64,000 nt of DNA from Tubiluchus corallicola (taxonomy: Eukaryota > Animalia > Priapulida), in the NCBI GenBank assembly GCA_030141605.1, contig JAQGDQ010000538.1:84807-148806 (forward strand), in the 5' to 3' direction. The position numbers and the translations under genes were made by a program. Shown here in pieces: positions 674 to 47,600 of the stretch; the first letter of the stretch is position 1, and every line of letters begins with the position of its first letter. The notes under the pieces were generated by a model. That model was not told the DNA's origin. It did no database searches and saw only the letters and a list, made by a program, of their open reading frames with translations.

Positions 674-835
674 ACAAATTGTTATTTCCTAGTGGAATAT
701 AATTCCTGTCCTTCGTGTGGTTTTAATTATTAATTAAAGCATAATTAAAACAAAGTAGCGTTATAATGTGTTAAATTGGTAAATAAAATATCATATATTT
801 TTATATTTATTCAGCTTAAAAATTTATTATTTTAG

Positions 836-7481
<6,646 letters not shown>

Positions 7482-10506: not shown

Positions 10507-11648
10507 CTATTCTACAAATTCAAATGATTCAACTTCAAATGTGGATCTGCTTCCACTACTGCTGTCATCGTCACTGAAAAAATAAGCATCTATTGGCTCT
10601 ATTCTTTCCTCTGGTAGCCTAAATCTATTGATTAGATTCCTAGCAGCACTGATCGTGTTCAGCTGCTCTGCTATATAGACAAACATATCATACTCAGCCA
10701 ACTGATTTCTCCAGTCCATTACAATGGAACGATGTGAATTAAGTAATATTGCACGAAACATACTCATCACCACAGTTATAGAGATCGTAGTAAAAATGGC
10801 AAAAAACACTGGTCCCAGATATCGATGGGCAAGCCCAAACGAGTGGGACTCGCTGCCAGGCACAATCATGATCACCATTGTTCTAAAAGCTAATATAAAT
10901 TCGCTGAATTCTTGCATTTTACTGCCAAACGCTATCATTCCAAAAAAAGCAAAAGGCAACAAGCCAATTATCACCATGAAACAAAAGTTAGCAGCTGGAA
11001 ACAATGATGTGGATAACATAAAAAAATGTATCAACAAGAGTTTATTAAACAATAACATATGCCAAAGCTTCAAGCAGACTAAAATAACCAGAAATGCTAG
11101 GATGTAAGTCAAAGTGAAATCCCAAAAGGCAGCTTGGTAAAAACTGGCGAAAGCAGCATCCTTTTCTGATGACTGCTTTTCCAAAAGCTTGTCAACATGC
11201 ATTGTTTTCTTTACAAACAGTGCCAGAGCAGTAATGGACAATGAAACAATACACAGTTCTATCCAGTTCCAAAAATGGGATAAATACTTGAAGCGCAGCT
11301 CATAAAGCTTACGGAGTTCCCTGAAGATGAAAATGGCCAGGAATATGCAATAAGCAATTTCACTTGTTATTAGTTTCCACTCTACCGTCTGCACATACTT
11401 GATGAGATTCAACGTGTAAATCTTATAAGTTGAGAAAACACCACCAGTTCCACTAAATTCCACTACCAAAGATACAATGCTGAACAGATTTGAGTTGGAA
11501 TTGAACAAAGTGAACTCGATTGCTAAGGCACGAGTGTAATCATCGATCCATCTTGAGTCGATGAGAGCGGCTATAAGAGCTTTGTTCTGTGTGATGTTAC
11601 GTGTTAGTTCAGCCACATAACCACCACCACTGTAGAGTGCAAGTAAAC
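10507..11648 (-). CDS. PKD1-like terminal exon: end of TOP domain, polycystin channel helices and short C-tail
   Basis: YSGGGYVAEL..WIDDYTRALAIEFTLFNSNSNLF, FWNWIE, LGPVFF and several TM segments; acceptor cacag at 11649; stop at 10507. Confidence 0.95.
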
Positions 11649-14600: not shown

Positions 14601-17600
14601 ATTGACCACAATATCCTCTACAGTTTTTGTCACCATGTACGACCTATAAATTATAACAACAAACTGTGTTAGTTTAAGAAAAATCCATAAAATTAGAAGC
14701 AATTCAGTGTATATATTTGTGTATCTATTTAAAGCCAATTGACAGAATAGCTCTATCGGCTGTGTAACAGTCTAAGCGAGTCCAACTCTTATTCAGTTAA
14801 CATCAGATGTCAAAAACTTCCCATTGTTTCCATATACTGTAATTTGGGTAGAATAGGAGGAAAAACTTGATGTCACTTGTCCAGTTTGCCTATATGGCCA
14901 AGTGTTATAAGTTTAAAACTGCGTAATTGCTTAACTTTACCTGGTATCCCGAAAATAAGTGATGATGTTTGACAACATCAGGATGAAAAAACCAAACAAA
15001 AATAATTCTTTGATTATGCGGCGCATCTTTCGTTGGCGCTTTCGCTCCCTTCTAGCTTCTATTAGTTTGCTTTCGTCTGGTGGATTATAAAGATTAGTAA
15101 TATCACGTGTCTTCAAACGCCTGTTCAATAATCAGAAAGCAAAACCATATGTTAAGTTATAGTTCACTAGTAAGTTATATTAACATCAGTTAATTTCTAC
15201 CAGTGTATTGTATATACATGAACATATTGTATATTTGTTAACTCCTTCAGGACTGCAAGAGTTTGCTGCATTTTGCATAAGCTCATGAAAAACTGCTCTT
15301 ACTAAGTAACAATTATGTTACATAGGATAATTTTTGTAGGTTTCTACCCTCATACAATGGGCTTTCATGCAAAAGCATATATGAAATGCATTGCTAATCT
15401 TAGACAAATTAAAAATCAATTTTTGACAAAAGTGACTGCAGTGTTTGCATCATAAGAATGCAAGGTAGCACTAGTGTGAAATCCACTGATGCAGAAAATT
15501 TCAACTATCCAGACACAACACACTGACAGACTTTAGCCTCAAGTCTACTCACCTGCTTGCTACAGCCCAAGATGAAACGACTTTAATTTGTCCTTGGCTG
15601 ATCTGTTGGTTTTTCCTGGAACAGCAGCAGAACTCTGCAAGCCGTTCTCTTGGGCTGTAGCAAGCAGGCGATCAATAACACAGTGTGTACGATTGTGCAA
15701 GTGTAAGCCAGACTAAGCTGCTCGACAGGTTAGGTTGACAGTCCCGATTAAATCACTTATAAATGCATAAACAAATAGCATGATTGGATAGCCAAGGTCT
15801 CCTGAATGGAACAGTACTTAATTTGTAATCATTTATTTATCTGTGCTCACACAGTAGCAGAAAAGTCATAGGCTTATAAAACCTATTTAGAGTGGTGTGG
15901 TCCTGAAGGAGTTAAAGCAAATGTGTATTTTTATTAAAGTAACTAATTACGATTAAGTTGTCATCGTAACTTGCATCGCATCGGCATTTGCATCGGGTAC
16001 ATACGGTTTCATTTATCAGGTGTTTTTCAAGTTAATTCATATTTAATTTGCGGCTTAAATATCTTAAAGCCATGCAACACCGTTGTATAGAATTAAATTT
16101 CAAATGAAATACAATGTACAGAATCCTTCTCTTCTGGGAAAAGCCAGATTACATACTATCATTCCCCTAGGAAGAAATTGACTCATTTGTACATATCAGA
16201 CCCTTATTTAATCTAGCACACAGTTTTCGTTTGCTTAGTAGTTCTTTATAGTTCTTTCTTGCAAGGCATGAAGCTTGCAAGAAAAGATGTCTGGCAAGTT
16301 ATTTATACCAAACCTCTGTTCTGTCGTCATGTTACAGAGCTGTTTCAACAAGAGGACGAAGAGGTTGTCAAAACGCCCAATGTTGCACTAGTGCCCCAGA
16401 AGTGTGATAAATACTATAGTTTGTGCTTAGTAGATTGCCTCAGTTTTAGTAACTCATTGAGGCATTGTAATATAGTCTATGACAGGTTGCTGTGTCGACA
16501 TAGTTAAAAGATTTCTGAATAGTTCGTTTATTCTTTTCTTCAATGCATGGTCGCTAAACCCATACTACCTGGACAATGTGTGATGCTTCTTAGCAATGCT
16601 GCAGTTATTGGAGTGAAGTACTTAGAAGCAGTTGTGTAAGGACGAAGAACCACCAAACCATAATGCTCCTACGGTCCTACTCCAGACCTGAAATCAGTTG
16701 CATGAAGGACGTGGAGCAACATCGAGCCTTCCTATTCCTTAGGAAATCATTCCTTAGGATGTAGGTATTGCAGAAACTTTACTGGTTTCTCCTACCCCTC
16801 AAATTATCATTACTTATATTAGTTTCTTTACTCTCGGTTAATTTAACAAAGATTCACCCTTTCCCGGTTGTTCCACAGAGTTTCAGTTCTTCGCGTCATA
16901 AACCTTCTTTAACTGAATGGAACTGCTTTTAAATGGACATTGGTATATCATTTTTCATAAAATTGATCTTGTACCATCTGATCATTATTGTTTTTGCCTC
17001 ATATGAGTAGTAACTTGAAGGACTTTGCTTGAATTACTATTTGTACAATAATTTTCAACAAAATGAACAATGATTGAACAATGATTGAACAAATCATTGA
17101 ACAATGCTCTATACTATTTTTTGTCACTTTCTCATCTTGCATCCACAATGTTGGTTCAATTTTTTATCGAAAAAATGATTTACAAACGGTGTACCGAAGA
17201 ATTTAAAATGACTTAAAATTGAACAAAGATTTTATGAACCCAAATAGATGACTACAGCACAGAACCAAAAGCAATAGCAAGAATAATACAGAATTAAAAT
17301 GTTGACGAGATTATTAAAAAGAGATGACCTACTTCTGACATACATGAACTGTTAGCTGTACCTTGTCAACAAAGGGCACAGACTTACACAGGTTGGTTTG
17401 CTACAAGCAGGTTCAGTGTTCTAAACTTCTGGTATCAATACAGAATGATGAATATAAAAACCGTTTCCTTTATTTACGTGACGAAGTTTCCAAACACAAA
17501 GACGAAAACAGAGTTTACATCGTCACGGGTGAAGTTAACTAAACTAGTAATAAACAGACAAACACAGCATAACCTGTAAACTTGGCTTTAAAAGTGCAGG

Positions 17601-20600
17601 TTAGAACATCTACATCTAACAAAAAAGTAGTGCTTAGTGCTCAATACATTATGTATGCTTCGACAAGATGGATTTTTATTGTCCTAAACTATTTTCTGAC
17701 CTTGAACAGGTTTAATTTGGCACTATAAAACTTGAATAATCCATATTCACAGAAATGTTCTTATACTGTTAACAAAAAGTAAAATGATGTAGTACTGTAT
17801 GCTATTATTTCAACTAGCTCTCCGAAAATAATGCTGCATTGACTCAAATGACATCAAAAATTACTACATAACTGTGTACCATCCAATATTATCAATGAAT
17901 CGGTTATCTTACAGGACCCTAGAAAAAAGCGTATTACAGCATATTGCAGAATTTTAAAGAAATGCATATAAAACCTTTTCAAATAGATTGATAATGTATA
18001 GTTGCAAGGAATCCAATTATTTAGCATGCTTATTTCTCAACAGCATTTATAAAGATGAAGATATGCCTATAACTGTGACACGTACCTCTTATATATTTTG
18101 TACCACTCCTCATGTAACAATTCATCTTGCTCCTGTAGAAGAGGCACATATACATGTTTTTCTTTCAGTTCTTCTGGATCTCTTTTTAGCAAGGAAAAGA
18201 ACAAGGCTATAAGAATTACTTGCACTGGATCTACAATACAAACAGCTTCAAAAGCCGAATACAACATGGACATCAACCAATCAATACTTGTCTTATAGCC
18301 GTATTTTAATCCATACAGCATCACCAAGTATGAACAAACTAATGCGGAGCTGCAAACCAGAACCCAGCCGATGTAGACGCACCACCATGGCAGTCGATAG
18401 CGTGAACGTTTTTCCACTTTTCTTCCAGAATACAGTGCGTGAGCAGACCGTTTTCTCTTTACAATAGTAGTTCTTCTACGTTTTATCTTTCTAGGAGTGA
18501 CCACTCGTAATTTTGAATCTGAATTTTGCCTCTTCACGATAACACCTGCTATCACTTCAGAATCAACATCTACTCCAGTTTTGACAGTGTCACTCAGGCC
18601 TTGCCCATTATTCTTTGGTTGTGTCGGTAAGTTCTTTGATTCAAATGATTGCAACTGAAGTGGCTGTCCAACTGATGCACTGTCTCTAGTGTCTTCCCCT
18701 GCCTGCAGGAAAAATTATATAAATTATCCTCCACCTTCCATATTGTAAACAGAATCTGCTTCTGGTTCGTAAAAATGTTTAATAAAAATGTTTTACTAAA
18801 ACATTTATGAATAATAAAACATTTTTGTTACCAATATTTTATTTATCACAAATCTTTTTTATAAAAAGCATATTGGAAATGCATGTTTCGAAAACTCAAA
18901 AGCTCATATTTAAGTTTCGACATTCAAGTTGGCATATCTTAAAACAAAAATGCAACTTTAGCTGTTGTTTTGAATTTATGAGTTAAGAAAACAAATGCAG
19001 TTTTAACAGTAAATGAAATCAAAACTGGCACTCCTCAAGGTTCTGTAATTGGCCCTACTCTGCTTCTACTGCTCAATGATATAACAGATTTTAGAGTCTC
19101 TAAGCTTGCTGCTTAAACTCATGGTTATACTCGGTTTTGAGCTGGGCCAAGACCAGTGTAAAGGAGGCTTTTAATGCGCAAGCTTAACACACTGAAACTC
19201 ACGAAGCACTCGATATGAGTGAATGTTTCTACTCAAGAAAAAACAAATCAAGTCCATATGTCACATTATTATGAAACAAAATACATTTTCTACAATACCT
19301 GCATTTCAGGGTGGTAAATAATATTTGACGATACTCCTCTTTTTGGCTTTTTCTTAAACAGACCTGCTAGTCTAGTAAAACTAGGCCTGCAAATGTAAAA
19401 AATAAAGTATAATTGATTTAGTCTGCATTGTCAATACAACTGTGTATGGTAACAAAGGGATAATTTGCAATGGCAATGAATGGAAGGATAAATAGTCCTA
19501 TAGTAAAAAATGAAAAATCAAGGTGCTTCTGTTCACCACAATTATCTTTAGTGAAAGAGTAGAAAGAAAGAAAGAAAACAAAACATGCGTTAAAACAAAA
19601 ATCACTAAAAAAATAACTAACCACCTTTCGAACTTAGAACAGAGAAACATTAAAAATTAGTCCTAGTGGAAGCTGCTTACTTGCTCGACATGCCCCTGTC
19701 CTTTACAGATACAATATCACCACTTTGTGACAATCGAAACAAACACACAATGGCCAAATTAATCATCCATGTAATGACGCCAGTTGTGAATCCTAGATGG
19801 ATATATGATGCGATAAAATAACAGTGAAGAACAATGCACAAGAGACAATTAGAAAAATGTAGTTTTTCCTTTATTTACAAATGCACATTTTAGTCGACAA
19901 CACTCACTTCAAATAACTACTGAATTAACACGTATTGATTTTCAAGTCAAATATTGTACAGATATGTATATATAGTAACCTACCATAAAATTTAACTGAT
20001 GTGAGCCAGCAAAACAAGTCAAGGTTTAACTTTTAATTATTAACAGTCCATATTAATTTAATATAAACAGAGTTGTTATTCAACTAAATGTTTGTTAAAT
20101 CAAAGGTACTACTGAAATCTAAGAGGGTTAATGGAATTTTAACAACTGGGGTGGGAGTGAGGCAGAAAACTGGAGGGTGATTGAAACTATTACTGTTGAT
20201 AAAGAATGTGCAAAGCAAAATTCATAACATATAACACATCTATAAAATTTTGGTAAGACGAGTTGAACTGTATGAGTTTACTTCACATCAAAGGTTATAC
20301 AAAGGTCAAAAATGGTGTAAGAAGTTAAAGTCAATCCTTTGCTGAAACAAGTTATCCAGCACTCTATGCATGTTTATATTGGAAAACCAATATCTGTACA
20401 AACAACAAACAAGAAATGCTTTATTAAAATTTCAGTAATATTATGGTGAAATGAATTACAGATAACATTGAAGAGAAGATTTACCAATAGAAAGTTGAGA
20501 CCAGGAAAACCTTAGAGTAGCCACCTCTGCTTGATCTTCAGGATCATCAGTTGGAATGCCATAAAACATGATGTTTCCAAGCATCATGGTAAGTAAAAGT

Positions 20601-23600
20601 GATAAAGCACAAGATGATCTCTGAAAATGTTTAAAAAAGAATCACACCTTCACACATGAATTATGCAACTACTAACAATATCCAATTACCACTGACCATG
20701 GAGAAATATGCAGAACTGTAATAACAAGAAGCTATAATACTAGCAATAAGCAAATAAAAATTTAATAAAATACCATTTAATGTGCAAGTGGATATCCAAC
20801 AGAAAAATTTCAAACAGCATCTATAAATAGTGAAAAGTGAGATAATGGCGAACTAATTTATACCAACCTGGACTCTGGTAAAATGACTATGAGGAGGTCG
20901 CAAGAATATGCTCAACCACAAGTGGCCATCTTGAAAATCCTCCAAAGTTTTACTTGAAAAGAAGTGAACAAAACCCTAAGTATAAAAAGTGATCCTGTTT
21001 AAGTTACAAACATTTTATTTGCTTAAATTTATTTTATTTAATAAAGCAAAGAATTATACATACAATGATTATTTTTACAGCTCTCATCAGATAGATATCT
21101 GGCAAACTGTTAGTGAGCATCAGAATGTTGTTTCAGACTTCAGCAAGTTTGTAAAGTACTGGTGATGTGTTTTAGCGGAGGATTGTAGCATGCGACTACT
21201 GCCGCTATAGCTAGCCTTATGGACGATAGAGGGCGGAGTATGTAGGCACCTCCTGTTAGTACAAACCCGTTCAAAACTCAAAAGTGCACTCAAGACCCTT
21301 GTAGTACCTCCAGAGGATTCCACACGGTAACTTGGCAAAGTAGGAAGGGAGCTACCTACAGTTTAAGCACAGGACGACATGAATCCCTCAAGTCTGCATT
21401 GATCAAAATGCACTGTCTACTAATACAACTAAAGCACTAAAAACAAACACTGTCTCACTTTTTGTCAGCTACTTTATTATAACGATTAATATTTCAAACA
21501 AAACTTGAATTTTCACAACAAGTGCATTTCCCATAATCATAAACAGTCGGTATGTGGGATTCACATAAATTCTCGACTGGTCACTCGGTAACACTAAACT
21601 AAAGCATGCTTTAAGCAGGCAAGACAAACATGGCATCAGTAATAACTAATTGACAGAACTATGTGAAAACCTAAAGCACAAATACAACTAAACGTATAAT
21701 TTTGTCAGTGGCATGACTGTACTACTTGAGATGGGAAATCTGTGATTTTGAAAATTACTCATCTTGAAGAATAGCATAGACTGAATCATGTAACAGCTCA
21801 AAATAAAAAATTGACAGCATCTTATCTGCAGAAAATTCAATACAAAATATGGCACTGGTGACCCAATTTAAGCTTCTTGTATTAGTTGCTTACTAATCTA
21901 TTCGAATAATAACAGAATTTGGAATAAGGAATTATTAGGCAACTAATCCCATAGTTATGCTATTCTTAAAATATTTTACCTTTAGTTCGCTTTCTTCAGC
22001 TGGGTATAGCTCGTGATAAACTGTTTTCAGCCCACGATCAACGGCCAGCCACTTGTTACATAAGAAACACCAGGAAGCATCCTCCTGCACATCTGTAATC
22101 ACGACTTTTCGCAAGAACCTAAAGGATGTGTAGTTTGTATGATAAAGTAAATTAAACTGCACTCCACAAATAACAGTACTGATTTAAAATAAATACATAG
22201 AGCCTACATAAGTTTAGGCTTCTTAGTTCCCTTAAAACATTAAAAACAATACACTGTCAAAATTTATTGTACAATATGAAGAATGTTATTTATGTATTAT
22301 GAACGACAAAATAAACTTACTTACAAAATAGAAAAATATATATCAAAATTAGCTTTAAGATACAGTTGATAAACTATACACAACATAATAAGTCCTTCAT
22401 AATGAGAGCATTGATGTTAACACTTAATTAAAAATCTTTTTTAAAAGCAACAATTCAAGAACATGACAGCTACTAGTTCACAGCAGAAACATAGCCTTAA
22501 AATTTTTTGAGCTATTAAGTGTTAACGCGCTTCCCTTCTTATACTTCAGATTATCTTGATTATGATGTGACTCTTTGATCAGCGTTTTCATTAACATGGT
22601 TTTGTAATCTATCTTAAATGAATTTGGAAACCTTTCGAAAATTTGCTGGCTCCTTTTCATGAGACAAATACAAATGAAATGTAACAAAACATTTGTTTGC
22701 CTCATGTTCTTCCCAACTTTTCAGTAGTGGAGGGATTTCTCACTCTCAATTATTTATAGTTACAGCTATTGTACTGGTCTCTATCCCATGATTTTATTTC
22801 CAAGCCTTACCAGGAAGGATGTTTTCCTGAATTGTCATGCCAGATAACAATAGATGTTAGATCACCAAGTGAATGTTGTGTTAGCAACAGAAACCAATCT
22901 TGAGCTCCAGCACACATGATAGGCCTATTTTTATCAGACAAAATGGCTGGAGAACTAGTACCATTTGTACCTAGAAAAAATACAAAAATTAGTAATACAA
23001 GAGCAAAACAAAAACTATCAACTAATTATTCAAACTTGCCTCCAGGTAATTATTATTACAATACTAGTGATCTCACCAGTTTGATTAAAGAAACATGTTA
23101 CTCCAAATGTACAGTGTAACTAACATAAGAACCAAATTTAAGCAGCTTTGTATAAATATTTGAAAATGCTGACTGTTGAAAAGTTTTATTCTTTATATTT
23201 TTATACATAAAACAACCTGCAGCCGACTATTCACAAGTTCGAGAAAACTTTTTACGAAAGAGCCTGTGTATATATATATTAAATGATATATTAATATATT
23301 TAATTATATACATATAATTTTAATATATATGTATATATATATATACGTATATAATTAAATATATTAATATATCATTTGATATATATTTGATATATTAAAA
23401 TATATCAAAATTAATTTTCACCAGGGTCATATATATATATTAGACGTTGGTGAAAATTAATTTTGACCATGAAATGTGGTATGGTAGATTATGAAAATAG
23501 ATAAAATTATATTTAATACAAATTATACCAATATATTAGACTATGGTGAAAATTAATTTTGATGATGGAATGTGGTAAATGTGGTATGGTAGATCATGAA

Positions 23601-26600
23601 AATAAATACAAATTATGCCAATGAAACTCAAGCTGTATTGAAAATTCTATATGACACTCCTGAGAATCCTAACTAGTGATAATACCAGTCATTTAAAATA
23701 AATGAAGTGCAAAATGAAGAATGTTTCTGTAAACAATATAAAAAATACTTTATTAAAAAAGGAAAGAACACTTATTTTCAAAGAAAATAAGACAATTTCA
23801 CCAACCGCCCTCATTCAATACATTACCTTTTATCACTACAGTGACAGTAGCAGTCGTAGCTGCACCTTTTCTGATTCCTGTATAAGTGATGATAAGATAA
23901 ACATACTTATCATTGGGATTGTTATCTTCAAGTATTGTCACGCCAACCTACCAGCAAAAATCGAAATAGCTAATTTACAACGACTTTTGACTAAATTATA
24001 TCAAACCCTTGTCTAAAGTTAAAGGTTTGTCTGCTTTAAGCGAGACATGGCAACTTTCTAATCTTTTTGGATATTTCTTATGCAGCTTCAAAAAAGTTTA
24101 TAATCTTATATTATTCAAAAATTGATAGATCAATTGCTGTCAGCTATCATGGATGAAAACAGAAAATGTGAATGAGTGATTAAAAATTTAAATTTAGTTT
24201 CGCAATTTGGTGTGTCATTTCTTTGCATTTATTTTAGGTAAACTCAAATGTTATAAGAAGCAAGCACAAAAAATAGTTCTATGATTAATCATGTCTATTC
24301 GTTGAATATTTTCTTACATCAATGTAAAACTTTCCTCAATAAAAATTAGTTTCCCTAATTTAAATAAAAATTAAATTAAAAAAAATAAAAAACATGCACA
24401 ATAGGTTCCTCTTTTTTATTGTCTGTTGCTCCAAATAAATCTTGGAGAATTTGTCTATTGATATCTAGCAAGCCATTTCAGGATTGATGAATGTTCACAG
24501 CACAGTTAGTTACAAAAGTGTTCGTAATACATAAGTCAGATACAGGAACCGGATAACTCACGAATATTAAAATAAGGTAGACTACAGACTGGTTTTCAAG
24601 TTTTAGATGAAATTCTCGTGTACCGCACAAACATGTGTAGATGCCTGTAAGTTTTCCCGACATACAAAGCACGGCAACTTTGACGAGTGTATTTGTATGT
24701 TTGACTGAACTTCTATGGACTCTTATCCTTGAACAGCAGAAAAAACTAGATATACAACAAGTAAAAGGCCACATGTAAACAGAGGTGTGCGAAAGTAGTA
24801 CTAAACAAGCGATACAGTCTATTTCTGATAGTAGAATATCATCTAGTGTACGGAATCATTACTGAAATTTTAACTTATGCATAGCTACACTTTTTTTTGG
24901 GTACTAGCAGTTCAAAACCTGACAATTATACAAATTAATAAAATCGCACAGGAAACCATTTACCTTAGGGATTTGTTTTTGTTGACAAGTTCCTTGTGAA
25001 TTGCTGGTAAAGAAAAACAAAAATGATATGTTTTTTCCAGCTAACACATTCTTATATATTACTTCTTTCACATACATCTCAGTTAAATGTTGTACAAAAA
25101 TATACTTGCCAAACCTGTAATGCTTTGTACATTGGGAAGAATTCCAGGCATCTACACAGAAGTTTGAATATGATCAATACATTTTCACCTAGAATTGGAG
25201 TTTGAGCAGATACCTGTTCTTCACAAGCATGTTTAACTGTACAAAAATTACTTTTGACCTAAAAAAGCAGATATCCACACCCAGTGCAATTTGCAAAATT
25301 TTGCCCACTGAAATACCTGGAATATCAAACCCTAAGACATATCATTATCTGTTTTGCAAATTTCAAATCAGCAAGCATTTTTGCTTCCTAATAGTGTATA
25401 GATAGGAACAGATATAGTTATACCACTTGGCTGGTACAGCCAAAAACATCAAGCTCTCTCGAAAAGGTAGATTCAACACACACTCGCACAATTTTACAAA
25501 GTTTAAACAATTTGGCTCTAAAGTATCAAAGTCAGATAAAGATTTCATAACCTTATTAGCTAAAAATACTGACATTCTCCAATTATTTATCACTGGAATA
25601 CATACGATACTATCTAATAGCCTGTTAATAGGGTTATTGATGTTTTTCTACAATCTGGTGTATTTCAGTTTTGTAATCAAGCATTTTTCTGTGAGAATAT
25701 AACAACGAATGCTTCCTTGTTCCAGTTAAATATAGTACGAAGGCTAACACTAACGTCACAACTGAGGCAGAACACTTAAAGACCAAGGAGAGACATCTGA
25801 GCTTGAGTTTTTGGCATACAAAAACATAACTTATTATTATTGCACTTCGGTTTGGACTAAAAAACCAAAATGCGTTCTTTAGTTTTGAAACATTGCAACC
25901 CAAATGTTTGGAATAAATGAAAACGGAAGTGTGCAAAACTGAAGTTGAAGCTGTTTCTGCTAACTCCAATTATTAACTGTTAACTTCTGCTGACTCTGCC
26001 AACATTACAAAATCAACACTAAACTGCAATATAATACAACTTTAACTTTACCAAACAAGTTACATTGTAGGTCCTCGAGTTTCCTGATCCTTCAAGTTTG
26101 ATTTGTTGTTCTAAAAAGTAAATACTCTGATTAAATGCAAATTACAGGTACTACATAAGATAAACCTTGAAAACACGAAATAATTACCCTTGTGGTGTCT
26201 GCTTTATCTTTCCTGTATGAGTACACTAGCAGGACAAAGTAAATTATCCAAATCAGTACAACTAGCAGTACCGTTACAGGGTTGTCGTAAAAAGTCAAAA
26301 ACAATTGAGCCTCTTCAAATGGTCGTATCTCGTTTGGCGTTACAAGAAAGCTGCCTGCAAAGGTGGTCATGTGATAACATACACAGTGCATTCTCTTTTC
26401 CGTTGTAAGATGTCCCAACTGTCAACAAAAAAGTAGTTTGACATGAGTTAACATATGTAAGAAATTTTAACACCCAATAATTTTAACCGTGGCATGCTTC
26501 GTCAACTTTTTCAAGTGGACTAAAAATCAATAAAATATATAATGGTAAATACACAAATATATGCACAAGTTTTTATAGCAAAAATAAGATTTCTAAAACG

Positions 26601-29600
26601 TTTTAAAAAAAGAATACATTGGAGAAGAATGTTTGCCTTTGTTATAATTCATATTTAAATTAATACTAAAAACTAATAAAGTTTATTTTTACTTACAGGT
26701 TTAGACCAAGGTAAAAATATAGAAATTCCCTTATAAAACATAAATAGGTTATCACTCTCAGTTAGAATCATGTTTAAACTATTACTGGCTAAAATTAAGT
26801 GATAAAACTACAAAAAACTAGACTGATATGCTAAAAACTATGTAGAACTTTATATAAAGAGCAGTTTTGACTGAATGAAGAAATTTGAAACTGCTCTGAC
26901 AGTGTTTTGTAAGTAACAAAATAATTAACACAAGCGAGTTCTTGGCCATTCAGTGGAACGGGTGTGAATAATAGACAAAAACTAGAATCAATGCCACTAG
27001 ATGGAGCTAGCAAAAAAAAACCAATGGTAGCAGAGAAAGCAGGGATACCAGAAGATTATTAATGAACCATTCTGTTTTTTAATTGAATAATGGTTAGAGC
27101 ATGCTTAAATGATATGCTTCCTTAATCATAAGGTCATATTTTTTCTGAGCTCTGTCAATGATCTTGAAATTGTGTAATGGGGTAATTGCAGCAGGCAAAA
27201 TGTGCTTTGTCTAGTTTACTATGACTATATGTCTGTGGTCGGGTAGTCATGCCCATCTAATTATTGCTGCAGCCGCAACATTTAAATTTGCATATTAAAG
27301 GCAGGCCTCGATCTGCTGCTGATTACTTTTTTTCTGATACGTAAGATATAAAAAAACAAATGTTAGTGAGGACAAATATTGGTCTAATGGGTGTTCCCTT
27401 AAAAATTATGCTGATTTCTCAATGCTGCGATCATTGATAAAATGTAACTTCATGTTAGCTGTTATCAATGCTGCAATTTTAGCAAGGTTGCAAAGATGTC
27501 ATCAGTATAATTGTCTGTAAAAAGCTGGTTAGCTTTATTAGTTCAGGTATCCACAACTGCCTCTCGCATTTTTATTTTACATTTCCTTGTTGCATATGAA
27601 GATACAATTTATTAATCTGAGTGTTTAACCATGATACTATTTCAAATAGCAAACTGTCATTAACTATAAGTTTTTCGCACTTCTTTCAATGGGCTGGCAG
27701 CACATTTTTTCCATTGTCCAAAATGATGTAAAAATGGAAAAAATAGACAATTTTGCATAATCACAGCATTACCGTTACTATAATAAATATTTCCTTGAAT
27801 GTTTAATAAAAATAATATACAGTATAAATGTTTGGTTTGAGAAGGAAAATGCAGAAGTTTTGAAGATCCAGAATGTCACAATATATGGCAGGTGATTATC
27901 GATGGTGATGTTTGTATCTGCTTAAGGTTTTCCTTCACAGTTCTTATATACTGCTCATTTTGTGGACATAATTATTTGTAGTGTGTTAATCGGTTTATCA
28001 TTTGTGAATGTAAAATTTTGTTTTTCATTGTCATTGGACAAAGCCATGCCATACCTGCTATTGTAGTTTGCACTAAGTGTTGTAGCTTTTACAGAAAAAA
28101 CTGTATTATATTCCAATCTCCAAAAAGTAATAATTCCAATTTGCTGACCAATTTGGTGTTTTATATATTATTATCTATACTGGTTTAAAGAATATTTGGA
28201 TTACGAGTGCTTTTTGTTTGACTGCATACACTGAATCAAAATGAAACACATTTTCTTCAAGATACCTCCCCCTCTGACTGCCCAAAAACTGGTGTTTGTT
28301 AATTACTTTATTAGTTACAGCATGCTGTCTTAAACATTGAAGCAGAACTTTAATATAGTGCACTTACAGAAATAAATCAGTAAGTTACTCAAAGTTCAAA
28401 ATTATAACATAAATTTGAATGAATTTTTGAGCTAGTAGGTACTTGAATAGTTGAAATTATTTTATATTGACTGCATATAAGCATCAGAATTCCTGACTTG
28501 CTTCACCAGATTCATTTAAACGATTCCTTGCATTATGCTCTTTTTTACAGGCCATTCTAGGTTACCAAGGCTACGAATGATAAGGACACATACCAAACAT
28601 CCTTCGCTTCTAAACTCCTCATTTTTCTCATCCCAGTACACGCAACGGGAGTTATAAAAACCGACAGTAAAGTTCACTGGCATTACGTTAGGTTCATCTG
28701 AAACAAAACAAATGCAATTCTACAACATAGTAGCACAAAAAGATTTTTAAGATAACAGGCCTTATTTAACAAGTTTAAGAAAGAGGTTTAAACTGATACA
28801 CTGATAACAACATCTTTTTTAGTATTACTTTAACTGATAATCACACACCTGCTGGAGTATTGTTTGCTTCGAGATAACAAGGAAGTGTCTGCACATTATC
28901 ACGTGGACCTCCTATGAACCACCTCATGCACGGACAAGTGTAGACAAGATACCCAAGTTCTATTATCAGCTAGAGAAGTAAAAGAACAAAGTTAAATGCA
29001 AATATTAAACAATAAGATGATTCATGTAAACATATCATTGCCAGTAAGTTATGCATTTGTAACTTACATCAACAGTTTGATAATTGTATACCTTAATTAT
29101 AATACATATACTTGTATACAGTCGAAAAAAAGCACTCAATCCAAATATCTTTTAAAGCAGTATAGATGGTCATATAAACATCAAATTGTTCAGCAAATTG
29201 GAATTATTACATTTGGGAGGTTGTGATATAATGCAGTTTCTTCTGTAAAAGCAGCAACATTTAGTGCAAACTACAACAGCAGGTATGGCATGGCTGTGTC
29301 CAATGACAATGAAAACCAAGTACGATATTCACAAATGATAAATTACCTGAGCCAACAAAGATGACTAAATCAGGTGTATTAAATATTGCAATATGTAGAG
29401 AGAAAAAATAACCAAATAATCAAAAATTACACAAACATAAGAGAAAGTGCACCTATGCACAAATGGTTTGTCAAAATTATGAGTTTACTAGTTCTAACAG
29501 GTATAAAATTGGTATGCCACTATGTTGTAGGTACTTTAATTAATTGTAGGCGTTAGTTAGTGCATTTACAAAATATAATCATCTTCGCAAGTGCATACTA

Positions 29601-32600
29601 TACAGCTTAAAAAATAATGATTCTTCCTGAGCAATTGATGAGCATAGCTAACAAGCAATTATTTACTATTTCATGAGACTATTGTGACTACTGTCTACCA
29701 ACAGCCTAATTATATATGTGTCACTAAAAGCGGCATTTGCCACATCAGAACCTTAGTCATGCCACAAAATTATTCTGAATAAATTTAAAAGAATTGTTAC
29801 ATTTAAACATTTATCTTTCTACGTGGTTGCTATGGTTACTGTCTATCATAGCAACACCATTCATATGCCCATTAAAAGTGATGCTCGTCACACCAAACCC
29901 CTAGTTAACCATGCCTGAAAATTATTTTGAATGTTTCAAAAGATAGTTAGTATTGCAAATATTACCATAACAACAGGCCATTTATAATTGTAGCAAGGGT
30001 GCTTTTTAACATTTTCGTCTCATGCACAATTGTGCCATTTCATGTTGCATGTTTTCAAGTACTAACATTTTATAAACTTCACCTTTTTTCAATAAAAGGG
30101 CTAAAATAAGATAAACTTGCTAGTCATTGTGCGCCAAACACTTGCAAAAAAAGTGAAAAGTTTTTAGTTGTAGAAAAATATTGCTTTCAAAACTCACTTT
30201 TAAATATGTGACTTAGCAGATATCACCCCCACATCTTACGTTACGGTGACATGAGTGATTGCAGTCCATCACATCATATAATATTAATTACTGACCACAG
30301 GGATTAAACTAGCTACTGAATTTCTAGACATAACAATAAAACTGGCACTCTGTCAAGAATCCAAATGCCAAAAAATCGTTTCATGGTGAGTAGCTGAATG
30401 ATTTAGAGCTCACAAGATGTTATGTCGAGGACAATAGTCATACAATTATTATACCATTAATTAAGAGTGCTATTTAGAAGACTATATGAAAGGCACTACA
30501 AACTGCTAATTGGCATGGAATGCCCTTGAGACTTTCAATAGTATTTAGTTGACTCGATCCTCATTTCAATTGTGGAATACAGAAATACACAATATAATAA
30601 TCTAGTTAGCTCGAAATATATTCTCGAGTGCTGTGCTCAAGATATAGTCTAGTTAGCTTGAGATATTATCTAGCAAAATCGAAATCATTTTCTGGAGCCC
30701 TCGAGATATTCTCTCGAATTAGGAAAAATAATGCAATATCCCTTACAGGCTTCCGTAGTACATTACGAGCAAACTTAACAATTCTGTTCAGTAACCAGTC
30801 CATATTAATTAGGTGTTATAAACACTGAACAGACTGTACAACGCAGATGCCGTAAACACTGACAAATTGAACTGAATTAACAACACGGAGGAATAATTAA
30901 TAGTATTTTTATTACTGTTTGATAAAGACGAAACAAAATGCTTCTTACATGAATCTCTGGCTCCATCAGTTAACTTAGGTAGCTACTGTAAACATACTTC
31001 ATGGTGCATGTGCCTTACACTTTCTGTGCAGTAACAATCCTCAGCACTGCATGTCCAAACTAATACAATAATTAGCCATTTCCAATAGTCAATTTAATAA
31101 TATCTTTTAAATTTCAATTCTCAAGAAGATTTTTCATTCAATGCTAATATTGTCGGTTTTCTTTTTTCTCTGTAACTACTGTAACTAAAGAGAAAAGAAG
31201 CTTGTTTCGGGACAGAGAAGTGGATTATTCCGCAGAGAAAAAATTTCTTCCTATAGATGCATACCAATAATCTAGCTAAATAAAAAACACCTGGTTCACC
31301 TTTTCTAATAACCAGCCGGGGGCCAATCCTGAATTATCCTCCCATATTGTGACATTCAGGATGGTCCCAACTGCTACATTTTTCTTCTCAAACCAATCAA
31401 CTCTGAAAGTAGAAGTAAGATCTGAAATTAACTGGTAAAGATAATGAAGGTAAATGACTATCGCACTAGTAAGCTAAGTACGGGCTATTATGACTTAAGA
31501 TGGTAGTATCCACAGTGTTTGAGACGGCCATGCCGACAACCCATTTGTGTTTAATGGCACTTCATTACAACAAAATGCACCGCTAAATGGAGCTGTAATT
31601 CTATAGATAATAATGTAAATATTTGGGAATGGTATACCAATAGCAACTTACAGGCAGTATTGCTGGCTTGTGTAAGTCAAACATTTTATGAATCCTATAT
31701 ACATTTGCCTACATGTTAGACATTGTTTTGTATTAAACAGTCAATGAAGTAATGTTAGTGTTGTTGTATTATAGTTATAGTTAGATACATATATAGTTAA
31801 CAATGTAATGTTACAAAATACACAAAATTTCAGATTTTGCAGCATTTACAATAATCAATGAATATGTGTGTGTGCGTGTGTGTGTGTGTGTGCGTGCGTG
31901 TGTGCGTGTGTACGTGTATGTGCGTTTTAAATTTCAAATTCTGCACACAGATTTCAAATTTAATTTTAATAATTTAACAATACAGGTTTCTTTTTTGTTT
32001 GCATTGTTATGTCCAAAATCCAATAAAATGTTAAAGATAATCCTTTTACTAAGCCACATAATTCTTTAACATAAATCTCTGAACCTACTAAGATGTCTTA
32101 GCCACGTTTAAGTGTGCGCATAATATACATCATCCTCAGGGGGAGAAATAAGCAGAGGCAGACACCCATCATTAGAAACCTGGTTCATTCTCATTCATCT
32201 GATTAACTATTAAAGCCAGCACATACCGTTACTATTTAGCTATTCCTATTTCAAGTTACTTTTGAAAATGACTACAAGCTAGGATATGCGCAGAAAGACC
32301 TACAACTTCATAAAAAAAGATGTTTTGAATCTTTCAATAATCTACTTGAAACATTTTATATCAATGTTTAATATTAAGTTTGCATAAAACTGCAGTATTT
32401 ATAAACAAAATGTTTGTTATAATGATTTTTATATACCAACAAGACCATTTTTTACATACACAATTAATACATAACTCAAAGATTTTTGGGAACAAGGAAG
32501 CTATTTTTACTAAATAATTTACGATATAAACTTACCTAGCACGTTCATGATTATCAAGAAAACTATCCAGTATCATTTCTCTTGTTGTCCCGTGACTACC

Positions 32601-35600
32601 ATGTATAACGACATACACAACTGCACTGGTACCACTATGTGTTACATCTGCTGTTACAGTACCAATTCGGTATGTAACAAGGCCTGAAACTACAAAGACA
32701 AACAACGAGTTTATAATACTTTTACAACATTGCTAACTCTACTCTTAGTATTGAATTATGACATAATCTAGATTAGTCTATCATGCAAAGTGTAAGTTAA
32801 GGCAGTCATTTTACACAAAGATTTGTACCCGCTAATAAAAAGCATGAACTGAAAACTCTAAAAAATTATTGTACCTTGAGGCATTAAGTGAAATCCATTA
32901 ACAACTTATGTTGAACCAACTTTTTTCACATTTACTGGTGACAGATGGGTATTGCAGCGAAGACCACAAAGTATTGTAACAACAACATAGTAATAATATT
33001 GTAATACATTGGAGTATATACATGAGTAAGCAGTCTAAGCAGCTACAGTTAAACCAGTACCCCATGTGCACGTAATGAGTGATTGTGATACATACTGCAT
33101 ACATGATGCACTTTGCATTCAAGAATGCGGAAATGCTTCCAAAGGTACGTAATGCACAATAATTAATCTGCATCCATTGACCTCGATCTCTATGGTCCAG
33201 ATACAAATAATATGGCAATACACAGAATAGAAGCTGTCGCTGCCTGGATGATAAAGCGCTTTTTAGCCACCTTTGGCCATTGTGACCAATTTTAAAATGC
33301 ATTTCATGCAAATTCACAGCCACCTTTGGAAAGACCGGTTGCCTGGCTAGGTGGGTTTTGGTCACTTCACAAAAACATTTCCTCCCATTAAGTTTTCGAG
33401 AAGTGGATGAAGCGTGTATGTTATTCAGTAATATTCAGAATGTAGCTCAAGTTCCTTTTACCAAGTAGTGATGTAGTTGTTTCTCTGTTACAAAATGTTC
33501 GACCTTTACACACAAAATGAGTGCTTTCTTGTTCATGTAATAGAAAAATAAGCTAATGCTGCTATTACAATTATTCCATGTTGATCAAAGTAATGCTGAA
33601 ATTTTGACAGGAGCAAAATGTTGCTTAAAAATTATTATGAATTACTCACAAACAGTAACCAAAAATCGTGGAAAAAGCACCATTAAATTTGCTAAATTGC
33701 ATAGTGTTCATTAACGAGTGGAAAGAGTCGACACACATCACGGAACAGGGTGCTGATCATTGCGCGGACATGGAATCCTAATTTCATGCAATAAATGATG
33801 AGAATGCAGTAAAAGAATTATAACAAAAAACTATCCTATAGTGCTTATCTTTTACTACCAGATTGCCACATTTGTAGTCACAAAAACCTGCATGCATATG
33901 CATATGCCATCACATTTGCTACAATATACATATGCAATAATGCAATGCATATACATATAAAACGAAAGAGATGCATTACCGTCTACAGATATGGGTTTCA
34001 CATTTGCTTTTCTGGTTTTGGTAAGGGGATGCTCTTCCCACCAAATAGTGTCGCAGAAAGAATCACTTTTAAGAACAAACTTTAAGCATTCATCAGTGAT
34101 GACCGATGTGCATGAATGGTACTCAGACAAACACTGTTCCATGCAATCAGACCTAATAGCAGAGTCGCATGGCAGCTGGTTACACGTGCAACTACTGCGA
34201 CATGCAGAGAGCTTGACGGAGCAGTTATTGACAAACTCGTGAGCACACACCACATACATATATCTGCAGTGCCTTCTATCAGTTTCACGACGCAGGGTTT
34301 CATTACAAGCAGCATCCGTCTTATTAATGCAGTCACTCACTGAGTAACATGGTTCAGCCGTATCATCATCGTCATCATCATCATCGTGCTCATCATAACA
34401 ATCTGCCCTTCTTAAGAAACAGTCTTCCTTACACGTGCTATTTTCACTGCTACAGTTACCAAGGCAACCATAATAGTCTGTCTCACATTCAAAGTTTACT
34501 GGCTTTCGACAACGCCGCTCTTTCATTATGCACTTAAAAGACACATTCATGCAGTGTTCTACCCAGTCACCATAACATGGCTGTTTCTCCATGCATGCAT
34601 CAACACTGCATGCCTCATTTGCAAGTCTAGTGCACATCTGATTATCAACCACTGAAGTATGGTTAGTACCACATGTAATATTGGCTAGACAAGCCTCGGC
34701 TTCACTTTTGCACACCAGCGAAGGTTTAAGACAAGATGGAGTGTAGTAGGAATCAAATAAAAACCCAACAAAGTATTGAGTAGTCAAGTTGTTAACATTA
34801 TGAAATTTGAGGATGTTATCGGGCAGTTCCGAAGCATATGGATCTTCCCGAGGCACAGGTAGGCGCAACACATCAGCGTCATCTTCAAAGTCTGCTAATG
34901 TAGGCCTCTGATGCAATTTGAACACAACCTTAAAATAAAAAAAACTGATGAGTTGGCAAACAATATATAGTATAATGCCTACTCTACACAATCCTTTAAA
35001 AGAATGAAATTCAAAACACCGAACTCTGTCCACACTATAAGTTTTCACTGGCAGTTACTTTGTTGAAGGGGTATTTTCTAACTTTTCTTTATTTCGGAAA
35101 CATTATAGGAAAATAACTTTAGCATGTATTGAAAATGGAAGCGACATCAAAAAAAACTTCGCAAAGAAGTGAAATAAGGAGTTAGTATCAAATATTTCGG
35201 AATTTAAAAACAGAACAGCTAAAGAAATTTTTAAACTGTATTGGATAACATCAGGTACGTATGATGACCGGACTCTCTAAGCGAGTTCTTCCAGCTATTT
35301 CATTATCGCGCAATATTATTGGCCACTCATTCCGAGAATGACAAAAATCAAGAGCATCTTGATAGTGTCAGACACGAATGACATTCACATTTCAATGTCA
35401 TTCTCGACGTCCACACGGTTCCTCAACACTGACTAATTCGAGAATGAAAGTGTTTTGAATAACCTAAAAACTTGCTGAGGTATGGTGAAGGTTTATAAAA
35501 TGGCAAACTGTTAGGTCTAATTTTAAAGAATAAAAAGGCTATTAAAAAGACAGAGCCAAGAATAAGTACATGACAATGAAGCAGGAGTATCGCTTTAAGT

Positions 35601-44600: not shown

Positions 44601-47600
44601 TATGGATACACCTACACAGCGAAAAACAAATGGTTCAACATGCATGATCAAAAATAAACACACAATCTCATGTTTTAAAAATTCAGATTAATAAAAAATG
44701 GTTACCACCCAAAGGCAATTGTTTTAAATATACAAATGACAATGCAGGATTAGTGTAAACGAACACATAAAAGCAGGTGTACCGTGATTTCGAATTCCAT
44801 GGATACAGCTAATTTCAATGAGTCAGCCACCTTCAGAGTCACTACTGTTTTGTAGTTTCTTTCTGGTATTCCAGGTGCCAAAAGGGTTAAAGGTAAAATT
44901 GGTTGTGCTCCATAATGCAAAAAGATTCCTGCAAGCACAATGAAAAAGGAATGTTCAGGATAACTTCAGGTAGACTGGTTGTAATACCTCTACTGGTCTC
45001 AAATGGTTTATGAATCTCTACTTAGTTTAACCAAAAAAACTTTATTTTCTCTTTAGTACATCAGCAATTTTTGCATTTTTATTAATGCATTTAATTGAAA
45101 AAATGAACAAATAATAGTAATTTTCAGAGATCGAACTATCTAAACTGTTTGATAGGCATTTATTTAAACAAATCCACATAAATGAAGACCAACGCAAAGC
45201 AGGCATTATTATGATATAAAAACATTAACTTACCTTTTGAATTTTTTTCCTCGGCCATATCCTCAGCTCCAGTTTTGTAATAAAATTCATAAGACAGCGG
45301 AGTATCCGGATCAGTATAGCGGTCACAGTGCACAGAGAATTCGTGCACCGCAGCTGTTCCTAAACACGATAACAAATTGAAATAAAGAAAGAAAATGAGT
45401 AATAATATCAGTTATGATGGACTCTCAGTATTCGAACCAGTTTCTGAGCTTATGCCTACAATATTGCAAGGGCGAATGCAAGGTGAATAAAAGGTGAATG
45501 CTTGCTACATTCGATGGAAGCTTGCCTCAGCTACTGTTTGGAGTGAACAGAAAATCTCATCAGTTAATTGCAAGTTATTTGAAAAAATCTATACGATATT
45601 CCCAGTGCCTTTACATAAATGTCGATTTGGCATGTAATTATCTTAAAAACGTAATTCAATATGACCTGCGTAATCCGTGCAATTATTCAAATATTCACAA
45701 TCTTGGCATAAAAATTTTGAGGCTATGTATTAGTCAGTTTGGCTACATGCAGTTTTTTCTTTTGTATTACAGTCAATGCTGATTAGCAACCATTTTTACC
45801 ACCACTTCATTTTTTGAATTTTCAGTTATTAGCTTGTTGTGCACCTATACCGACATATAGCTAGTGTACACTCAATATTATGTCACTGTGTATAGTGTTC
45901 AATATAATAATATAATAAATAGATGAAATTTATGCTACAAAAATTCGTCAAATTTCGATGAAACTTTAGACAATTACAAAAAGTTTGTGAATGTGTAAAT
46001 TGTATAAAAATAAACTGAAAATAGAACAGAAAAATAAACCTTTTCTCACAACGTATTTTTCTAGCAGTACAATGCAACTAATTAAGGTAAAAATTAATTC
46101 ATCCGTGATACTAAGATTGAAGCAACAAGTTCATTTTTAGTTAAAAAATTTATTTTCCTTGGTTTAATTTCCTCTAGCTTTTTTGTGACTGTGAGCGAAT
46201 TTCTGCTGAAATTACAAAAAAAGGAATTGCAGTAGCAATCCACAGGTTTGATACTGAAGGATGTGTGACAATGTATCTGATTTAGTCAGCATTATTAGTC
46301 TATTATTACAAAAGGAGTTAGCTTCGCAGTTTAACAGGAATCATAAATCAAGTTCCGAATCTGTGTAATTTTGAAATCTCATATCTGAAATGTTAAAATG
46401 AAAGTTTGAGTTGCAAGTTTGTGTTTTTATCCTGGAATCCGAGTTTAGAATGAGTCAGCAAAAATGCTCAAGCTCTAGTTCTAGTTACAAAGAAAAACAG
46501 TTAAAGAACCTTCGATCGGTGAGACAGAGCATCTGCCTTGCTGAGGTCGTTCATTCAGTACGAATTCATAAGCCGCAATGCCCGAATACGGCGAATCAGG
46601 ATCAGCTCCTTAAAATAAATTATCAGAAACATATGATTAAACACATGCATCAAGCAAGCCTTTAAAAGCTTGTGAGCAGCAGATACGAATAACTACTAAT
46701 GAGGCAATAATAAATTAATTTCCGACTTAGATGCCAAATTACAATGCTGGACCAAATCACAATTCATTTTAAATGCAATGTTTATGCAGTAATTTCTTGT
46801 GACATCTCCAGTCTAGTCTGCAAACTTTGTAGTAAGACAGAAGCTTTTCTTCATATATTTTAGAAGTAACAAAATAATTAGCACATAATTAACATACCTG
46901 TAATTTCAAACATGCAAGTATCGCCTTCTCTGAATACTTTCCTTTTCACAACCAACCGGTCATTTTTCTTTAAATTTTCAAACAAAAACGCATCACGGTC
47001 AAAATCAATTGTTTTGCCAGAGCTGCAGAACTTCAGTGACCAGTGGAACACAAAATGGTTGGTACATTTTGTGCATTCGGCTTTTAGCTCCAGCTGGTCC
47101 AACGGGTCAACTTTTGCTCCGCAGTTTAGCACACAACTAAAATTACCCAAAAAGCTCATTTCATTTCAATGCTGAATTTTCACATGTGTAATTTCCCACA
47201 TGCAAATGCCACTAACACTAAGAAAAAGAATATTTTAAGAACATTTTAGAAGCAATAAAAAGGCAAGACAATAAATCTAAAACAAAACAAAGAGTCTCTT
47301 GAGTGCTTCAGATATAATTTTAGCACAGATGATTTATCCCTGGATTTTTTAGCAATCCTGAAAGCAAAATCTCAAAGAAACTTTACTTCTGAATGTACAT
47401 GTATATACCTTATCACAATAGTGGGCCGTGGACCCTCATAAGCCACAATTACTTGTTTTGCAAATTCTATTCTTTTATCTTCCTTTGAAAATCCCAAATA
47501 CACTGTATGTGGTTGTTCCTTAGCCAAACTTTTCGACTCAATAAGAATAGATGAGTCTGTTAAACAAACACATAAAAATGTGAAAGAATGAACCAAAGTT

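Follow-up and report, generated by a model that had tools for sequence, protein, structure and literature searches.

The stretch of DNA analysed here, called the window below, comprises 64,000 nucleotides (nt) of the priapulid Tubiluchus corallicola (assembly GCA_030141605.1, contig JAQGDQ010000538.1, positions 84,807 to 148,806). Its minus strand carries a gene for a receptor of the polycystin-1 (PKD1) type, and three small exons of this gene encode an additional PLAT domain, termed here the outer PLAT. The domain lies N-terminal to the first transmembrane segment (TM1) and is predicted from the sequence to be extracellular; the usual cytoplasmic PLAT lies C-terminal to TM1 in the same protein. 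Sequence comparison suggests that this architecture is conserved in two priapulid species, the second being Priapulus caudatus, and that it is rare.

The three-exon cassette

The outer PLAT is encoded by the following exons, with residues given as amino acids (aa) of the modelled protein:

32683-32536 (148 nt), minus strand: cassette exon 1, initial third of the domain (aa 1239-1287), phase 1 to 2
31402-31300 (103 nt), minus strand: cassette exon 2, central part of the domain including the sequon N1304, phase 2 to 0
28969-28849 (121 nt), minus strand: cassette exon 3, final strands of the domain including Cys 1334, 1336 and 1353, and linker, phase 0 to 1

Together these exons make up 372 nt with AG/GT ends, are in phase 1 at both outer borders and are in frame with the host gene. 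The first-pass annotation, made from the letters alone, had proposed the same three exons and their in-phase splicing, and by sequence both hold on the minus strand, with AG/GT ends and an open frame. It had also taken the joined exons for a PLAT domain. This was supported by a PLAT profile built from 120 domains of PKD1-like and LOXHD1 proteins, on which the joined exons score 54.3 bits over positions 1-102 of 116. Pfam was applied to the exons singly, not to the joined domain; exon 1 matched PLAT with 18.1 bits, under the cut-off of 23, and exons 2 and 3 gave no match. Among the splice sites of the gene (the other 33 acceptors and 32 donors), the acceptors of exons 1, 2 and 3 stand at the 85th, 15th and 48th percentiles and their donors at the 94th, 28th and 69th. 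The guanine-cytosine content of the cassette exons is 41-45%, against 41% in the other exons and 31% in the introns. Since frame, splice sites and base composition are all exon-like, the cassette likely consists of genuine exons, and one or more isoforms of the PKD1-like gene almost certainly include the three as true coding sequence.

It is highly improbable that the exons lie outside this transcript, as a small nested gene or a decaying fragment inserted in the 5.3-kb intron. Such an origin would agree with the reading of exon 3 through to a stop three codons past its donor and with the host frame being intact without the cassette. However, exon 1 has no in-frame ATG before the nearest upstream stop, the 124 codons contain no stop or frameshift, and both outer ends are in phase 1, matching the host. 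Furthermore, the same join to the GPS is present in an independently annotated protein, which is roughly 44% identical.

Only one of the seven skip patterns of the three exons keeps the frame, namely the loss of all three; each of the six partial skips causes a frameshift. The all-skip form, in which 33980 is joined to 28697, is open, and the phase compatibility that the annotation had pointed out for it holds. The cassette might accordingly be alternatively spliced, so that the outer PLAT is present in some isoforms and missing from others, perhaps according to tissue. The phase 1-1 symmetry with its open all-skip form, the fairly weak sites of exon 2 (15th acceptor and 28th donor percentile) and an inverted repeat bracketing exon 3 and the next exon would suit such splicing. 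However, the three exons would have to be skipped jointly, exons 1 and 3 have average to strong sites, and the Priapulus model includes the domain. We regard this explanation as quite unlikely; it can hold together with the reading of the outer PLAT as a binding handle, which is set out below.

The inverted repeat is 144 nt long (28018-28161 and 29176-29319), 90% complementary, and flanks cassette exon 3 and the GPS exon. Pairs of this kind can favour exon skipping or the formation of circular RNA.

Two sets of read contigs were compared with the region. X1 contigs, whose library kind is unrecorded and which cover introns as well as exons, contained no exon-exon joints and are uninformative on expression. 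X2 contigs, guessed to derive from RNA, were absent over 28450-32900, which is likewise uninformative on expression. Cassette exon 1 is spanned by one X1 contig with zero differences. In another X1 contig a long and loose AT-rich end sets in at 28950, which is 20 bases inside cassette exon 3; this could reflect an allele carrying an insertion or a short match by chance. X1 leaves most of this exon uncovered. A contig joint from 29319 to 31344, with 22 letters on its short side, was rejected as a splice junction, as it starts at an arm of the repeat and off the exon ends.

The host receptor and the insertion site

The hand-built model of the PKD1-like gene runs on the minus strand from 52759 to 10507 and comprises 36 exons, all with AG/GT ends, encoding 2549 aa without internal stops. 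Outside the cassette its parts are as follows:

44783..52759, minus strand: exons of the PKD/REJ region (Pfam REJ 28.9 bits; BLAST)
39689-39539, 37256-37156, 36757-36613 and 36530-36388, minus strand: four exons of the GAIN region upstream of the insert (gene model)
33980..34928, minus strand: 949-nt exon with strands of the GAIN accessory beta-sandwich (first ~63 aa), then the Cys-rich acidic insert (gene model)
28594..28697, minus strand: exon with the extended S10 long strand and the first half of the GPS (CVYW; Pfam GPS positions 2-21)
26188..26418, minus strand: second half of the GPS, predicted cleavage site, stalk and TM1 (Pfam; GPS-TM1 profile; hydropathy)
23947-23827, 22970-22811 and 22118-21980, minus strand: three exons of the usual cytoplasmic PLAT (PLAT profile)
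10507..20975, minus strand, last exon 11648-10507: TM2-TM11, TOP domain and channel-like half (Pfam PKD_channel, Polycystin_dom)

Pfam applied to single exons matched REJ, GPS, PLAT, Polycystin_dom and PKD_channel. The REJ match comes from exon 47165-46881, and this region is matched to homologs by BLAST at E 4e-27. A hydropathy scan of the modelled receptor gave 11 hydrophobic segments, the first of them (TM1) at aa 1445-1463 and none N-terminal to it. The GPS-TM1 profile scores 80.6 bits, with the predicted cleavage site at His1413-Met1414/Thr1415; the consensus is His-Leu/Thr-or-Ser (PMC9672506). The cytoplasmic, or inner, PLAT follows directly on TM1 (aa 1491-1606, 112.6 bits on the PLAT profile), where the annotation had placed it. 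Pfam PKD_channel (120.2 bits) and Polycystin_dom (79.9 bits) mark the channel-like half. By sequence, the host gene belongs to the PKD1 family: it has a GPS before TM1, a PLAT after it, 11 transmembrane segments with TOP and a channel-like half, and REJ.

From the last Cys of the outer PLAT (aa 1353) to the Cys of the GPS motif CVYW (1381) there are 28 residues, in line with the previously estimated distance of about 30 aa and with the placing of the domain N-terminal to TM1. Some 17 residues separate the end of the outer PLAT from the long strand leading into the GPS. The loop bounded by the corresponding strands measures 0-86 aa in 48 homologs (median 37) and 393 aa in the window protein. 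There it begins with ~250 aa of acidic, Cys-rich sequence, after which come a linker, the PLAT and a second, short linker. The Owenia homolog P0099 was modelled with AlphaFold (33 sequences, pLDDT 81, pTM 0.73), and in this model the loop lies between strand 159-167 and long strand 193-211, which carries the first Cys and the Trp of the GPS (Cys-x-x-Trp); the motifs of P0099 were matched to the window protein by eye. Foldseek of the Owenia GAIN model against the PDB gave no match at E 0.001, the GAIN structure 4dlo being third at E 0.009. Models of PKD1-type GAIN domains have an extra beta-sandwich between the extended S9 and S10 (PMC11697300). On the P0099 model and this S9-S10 sandwich, the outer PLAT is predicted to hang from the last loop of the PKD1-specific accessory beta-sandwich and to leave the cleaving core uninterrupted. 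The annotation had described the domain as embedded in the autoproteolytic GAIN fold. Its position inside the GAIN region holds by sequence, but within that region the domain is predicted to sit in a loop of the accessory sandwich and not in the autoproteolytic core.

The outer PLAT could also be a real, constitutive module of the ectodomain that is independent of the GAIN switch and serves adhesion, matrix contact or spacing, like shuffled lectin, EGF or Ig modules. Its site is the most variable loop of the family (0-86 aa), in the accessory sandwich; the content of N-terminal modules varies widely among homologs, and close relatives with the same core have no insert. Two features stand against this explanation, which appears rather unlikely. 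The linker from the outer PLAT to the GPS-entering strand is short and, in both priapulid species, nearly as conserved as the domain, and the GPS-adjacent position is unlike the far N-terminal site of the usual shuffled modules.

The Cys-rich insert of exon 33980..34928 is ~250 aa long and acidic, with 32 Cys and 8 sequons. It gave no Pfam match, no Atlas match and no significant match among the collected proteins. A structure model from the single sequence has a pLDDT of 42.8 and is helical in the last third. An X1 contig identical to 34025-34422 has a depth of 272, against ~4-26 on the rest of the gene, and the high depth extends to ~34700; an X2 contig matches 34407-34577 at ~88%. This hints that the block is a multi-copy module in the genome, contig depth not being a copy number.

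In X1, the GPS exon (28582-28713) occurs in a second version with 7 differences, and versions of the TM4-5 exon (18130-18436) that are ~87-90% alike occur in X1 and X2. These variants imply one or more close paralogs or divergent alleles.

At the 5' end of the gene, the hydrophobic exon 54884-54810 may encode either the signal peptide of the receptor or, for an Ig-Ig-EGF gene lying upstream, the membrane anchor; its donor is in phase 1, like the acceptor at 52759. Seven exons on the minus strand (59863-53675) join in frame and encode Ig-Ig-EGF, then a hydrophobic stretch of 23 residues and a short, stop-terminated tail. They are either a separate gene for a type I membrane protein or the 5' part of the PKD1-like gene.

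Elsewhere in the window, the plus strand at ~820-4582 has exon-like open reading frames (ORFs) from a different gene, which is oriented tail to tail with that of the receptor. The ORFs resemble a VWA/Cache-domain protein; five single ORFs gave no convincing Pfam match. Broken ORFs on the minus strand at 55699-56113, in the intron before the EGF exon, have no Pfam match and resemble the end of a reverse transcriptase of a long interspersed nuclear element (LINE). An exact 147-nt tandem duplication (5178-5324 and 5326-5472) lies beside a long CA microsatellite and may be an assembly artefact.

A second priapulid protein and the descent of the outer PLAT

The second case is P0078 (XP_014681546.1, UniRef A0ABM1FAS5), a predicted 460-aa fragment of Priapulus caudatus with the automatic name PKD1-like 2. 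Its order of domains is that of the T. corallicola model, with PLAT at 84-195, GPS-TM1 at 213-312 and PLAT at 334-449. Pfam recognizes two PLAT stretches and the GPS in it, and the outer copy scores 98 bits on our own PLAT profile. Four exons of the window (the cassette and the GPS exon) tile residues 81-240 of P0078 with a single 2-residue gap. Aligned to this protein, the inclusion form of the window protein scores 926 and the skip form 654. The two species are identical at 44/112 positions (39%) of the outer PLAT, 46/105 of GPS-TM1 and 53/116 of the inner PLAT, which puts the conservation of the insert close to that of its flanks; by exon, identity is 38% in cassette exon 1, 44% in exon 2 and 43% in exon 3. 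As the Priapulus model shares the architecture, the case is stronger than it would be from the T. corallicola sequence alone.

A HMMER search of 1.84 billion representatives, started from the GPS-TM1 exon, returned 388 matches, P0078 being second. Among the best 150 of the 388, which were examined, 51 had at least 200 residues before the GPS and 99 were too short upstream. Three of these 51 were flagged with a PLAT before the GPS, one of them (P0078) having the order PLAT-GPS-TM1-PLAT. The other two, P0081 and P0220, are tandem fusions of two PKD1-like units in which the first PLAT follows a TM1, and they were dropped; fused models of this type are false positives in architecture searches. The collected homologs number 263; 207 of them have a GPS and 110 have at least 200 residues before it, and a PLAT stands there in a single one of the 110 (P0078), these rows including near-copies and not being independent. 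The first-pass annotation had named no described example, in agreement with this count and with the literature covered, in which no description was found. A two-species profile search over candidates of 292-2000 aa returned LOXHD1 proteins and P0078 only, and a homolog search with the last exon of the gene gave 10 proteins, mostly of the PKD2 type.

Both outer PLATs have an N-glycosylation sequon at one shared position and three shared Cys. In a displayed set of five inner PLATs and three LOXHD1 repeats the sequon is found in 0/8; two of the three Cys are found in none, and the middle one is commonly present. A disulfide in the outer PLAT is likely from the sequence. An Atlas model of P0078 residues 75-199 matches PLAT models, which are eight-stranded beta-sandwiches, with template-modelling scores of 0.90 by row and 0.63 by query, this fold match being for the Priapulus copy only.

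The acidic positions of lipoxygenase and LOXHD1 PLATs are, by alignment, mostly kept in both outer PLATs and absent from the inner PLATs of PKD proteins. At one of the candidate positions the window protein has Ser, where Priapulus has kept the acidic residue. These acidic residues are putative Ca2+ ligands of PLAT. In its strong form, the annotation's proposal would have the outer PLAT sense extracellular Ca2+, with Ca2+ loading of the domain controlling release of the stalk. The kept acidic positions speak for it, as does the coral 11R-lipoxygenase, which is Ca2+-dependent through its PLAT (PMC7436259).

Outside the cell, Ca2+ is millimolar and fairly constant, and a PLAT Ca2+ site there would likely be always occupied. 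This level is far above the 20-500 micromolar Ca2+ used to load C2 and PLAT domains (PMC8740744). Because millimolar Ca2+ would saturate the site and one acidic position is Ser, Ca2+ sensing by the outer PLAT is doubtful and seems unlikely, and gating of the stalk by Ca2+ loading very unlikely.

Descent of the domain was considered with a tree of 73 PLAT domains, made up of the 2 outer ones, 34 selected inner PLATs and 37 repeats of 3 LOXHD1 proteins. The outer pair forms one branch (95/96) and is placed among the LOXHD1 repeats (93/95); the inner PLATs, that of the window protein included, stand apart (84/88). The annotation had suggested a phylogeny against LOXHD1 and lipoxygenase PLATs. The placement bears on the LOXHD1 part, but the approximately unbiased (AU) test does not reject a grouping of the outer with the inner PLATs; lipoxygenase PLATs were left out of the tree. 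Against solved structures, the outer PLAT profile scores 54 and 51 bits with coral lipoxygenase PLATs and 40 with polycystin-1. In BLAST and phmmer searches among the collected proteins, the best matches of the outer PLAT are of the LOXHD1/lipoxygenase type, with 33-37% identity. The outer PLAT is unlikely to be a recent duplicate of the inner PLAT in its own gene, as intron positions differ between the two domains and they are 35% identical over only 63 residues. An ancient duplication of the inner PLAT is compatible with the AU test. Descent from a PLAT of the LOXHD1/lipoxygenase type is suggested by these sequence comparisons.

In a tree of GPS-TM1 and inner PLAT from which the insert was omitted (76 rows from 110 after removal of near-copies), the window and Priapulus proteins are sisters, with support of 82 in a quick run and 92/60 in a careful one. 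The pair stands inside a group of 14 rows (93/89); the other named members, 7 in number, come from brachiopods and molluscs and have no insert. A single gain in a protostome sub-lineage would be the simplest reading, with moderate support.

Proposed function and known systems

The preferred reading, to which we give about an even chance, is that the outer PLAT cassette is spliced into an intact 11-helix receptor and provides an extra extracellular binding handle on its N-terminal fragment. In one old event of exon shuffling, a PLAT of the lipoxygenase/LOXHD1 type would have entered the loop in a protostome PKD1-like lineage. A glycan site and extra Cys, probably forming a disulfide, would then have been acquired as an adaptation to the extracellular side. 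As it lies N-terminal to the cleavage site, the outer PLAT would stay on the N-terminal fragment after self-cleavage of the GPS at His-Met/Thr. There its ligand would likely be a protein partner or a lipid surface, Ca2+ being a permanently bound structural cofactor and not a signal. PLAT domains bind both lipids and proteins (PMC8051682). Binding to the PLAT, or a pull on it, might be passed through the short linker to the GPS-entering strand, favour exposure of the stalk and switch on the PKD2-partnered channel, as in polycystin-1. In PC1/PC2, binding of an N-terminal ligand and stalk exposure are activating and raise Ca2+ permeability (PMC12513491). By this analogy, coupling of the outer PLAT to stalk release is plausible; the binding step and the transfer of load to the stalk would be the weakest of the proposed mechanism.

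Several observations weigh against the binding handle or its single origin. The loop belongs to an accessory subdomain that tolerates inserts, and a passenger domain would fit equally well. The phase symmetry of the cassette permits a receptor without it. The second example is one predicted 460-aa fragment of a gene model, and the Cys-rich blocks of the window protein and Priapulus are not significantly similar, 637/2000 shuffles scoring as high. No third case of a PLAT before the GPS was found among 2755 candidates of 292-2000 aa in a word-seeded search with the two-species profile, which is blind to receptors of more than 2000 aa. With regard to descent, the grouping of outer with inner PLATs has an AU p of 0.398, the window outer PLAT is a long branch, and support for the sister pair in the insert-free tree is moderate (SH-aLRT 60, with the bootstrap not settled). 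Ca2+ regulation is also not universal among PLAT domains, some of which need Ca2+ (PMC7436259).

A bolder variant would make the outward lipoxygenase-type PLAT sensitive to tension and lipid and tie it through the short conserved linker to the GPS-entering strand, so that docking on an extracellular membrane or lipid particle, or stretching of that membrane, directly frees the stalk and opens the channel complex. The PLAT of 5-lipoxygenase binds more tightly to stretched membranes and that of ALOX12 does not (PMC8740744). The variant seems unlikely; if true, the receptor would read both membrane faces with one fold and offer a natural ligand-to-stalk linkage for polycystin activation.

The outer PLAT is so far known from gene models of two species. 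A conserved outer PLAT by the GPS breaks the rule of one, always intracellular, PLAT in polycystin-1 proteins. As a small, expressible domain located at the switch, it offers a class of candidate ligands for the polycystin stalk: a lipid surface, Ca2+ or a protein partner. Moreover, the GAIN loop can carry ~390 residues beside an intact cleavage motif, which suggests it as a site where human PKD1-family proteins could take tags or force handles.

The literature covered gave no description of an outer PLAT in PKD1-like proteins, most subscription journals and supplements (including that of PMC11697300 with 2738 PKD1 GAIN models) lying outside this coverage, and no paper on XP_014681546.1 was found. 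The architecture is already public as one automatically named Priapulus model.

Among known systems, the window protein resembles the polycystin-1 family (human PKD1, PKD1L1-3 and PKDREJ, sea urchin SpREJ and the mollusc TRPP1-like protein) in REJ, GAIN/GPS with a His-x/Thr site, TM1, cytoplasmic PLAT, 11 segments, TOP and the channel-like half. It differs from the described members, which have one PLAT after TM1, by an outer PLAT and a 250-aa Cys-rich block before S10. For the sea urchin proteins, with one PLAT after TM1, PMC1934368 states that the PLAT of the family is "always found intracellularly", and coral (PMC4890752) and abalone (PMC12980990) PKD1-like proteins are likewise described with one PLAT after TM1; PMC12716839 contained no pertinent statement. 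XP_014681546.1 of Priapulus has the same succession of Cys-rich stretch, PLAT, GPS, TM1 and PLAT, is 39-46% identical by part, and has the sequon and Cys in common; however, it is a 460-aa fragment without REJ or channel half and keeps the acidic position that is Ser in the window.

The best matches of the outer PLAT are LOXHD1 repeats and the N-terminal PLATs of lipoxygenases (coral 8R- and 11R-LOX, human 5-LOX), in which the acidic loop positions are partly kept, but which lack its sequon and extra Cys. LOXHD1 and lipoxygenase PLAT domains face the cytosol. Extracellular PLATs that work on lipid surfaces or protein cofactors occur in secreted lipases and the clostridial alpha-toxin, and the C-terminal disulfide of the pancreatic lipase PLAT presumably lies at a place similar to that of the outer-PLAT cysteines. 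These secreted PLATs, represented by one weak PDB match, are appended to enzymes, whereas the outer PLAT is inserted in the GAIN region of a receptor.

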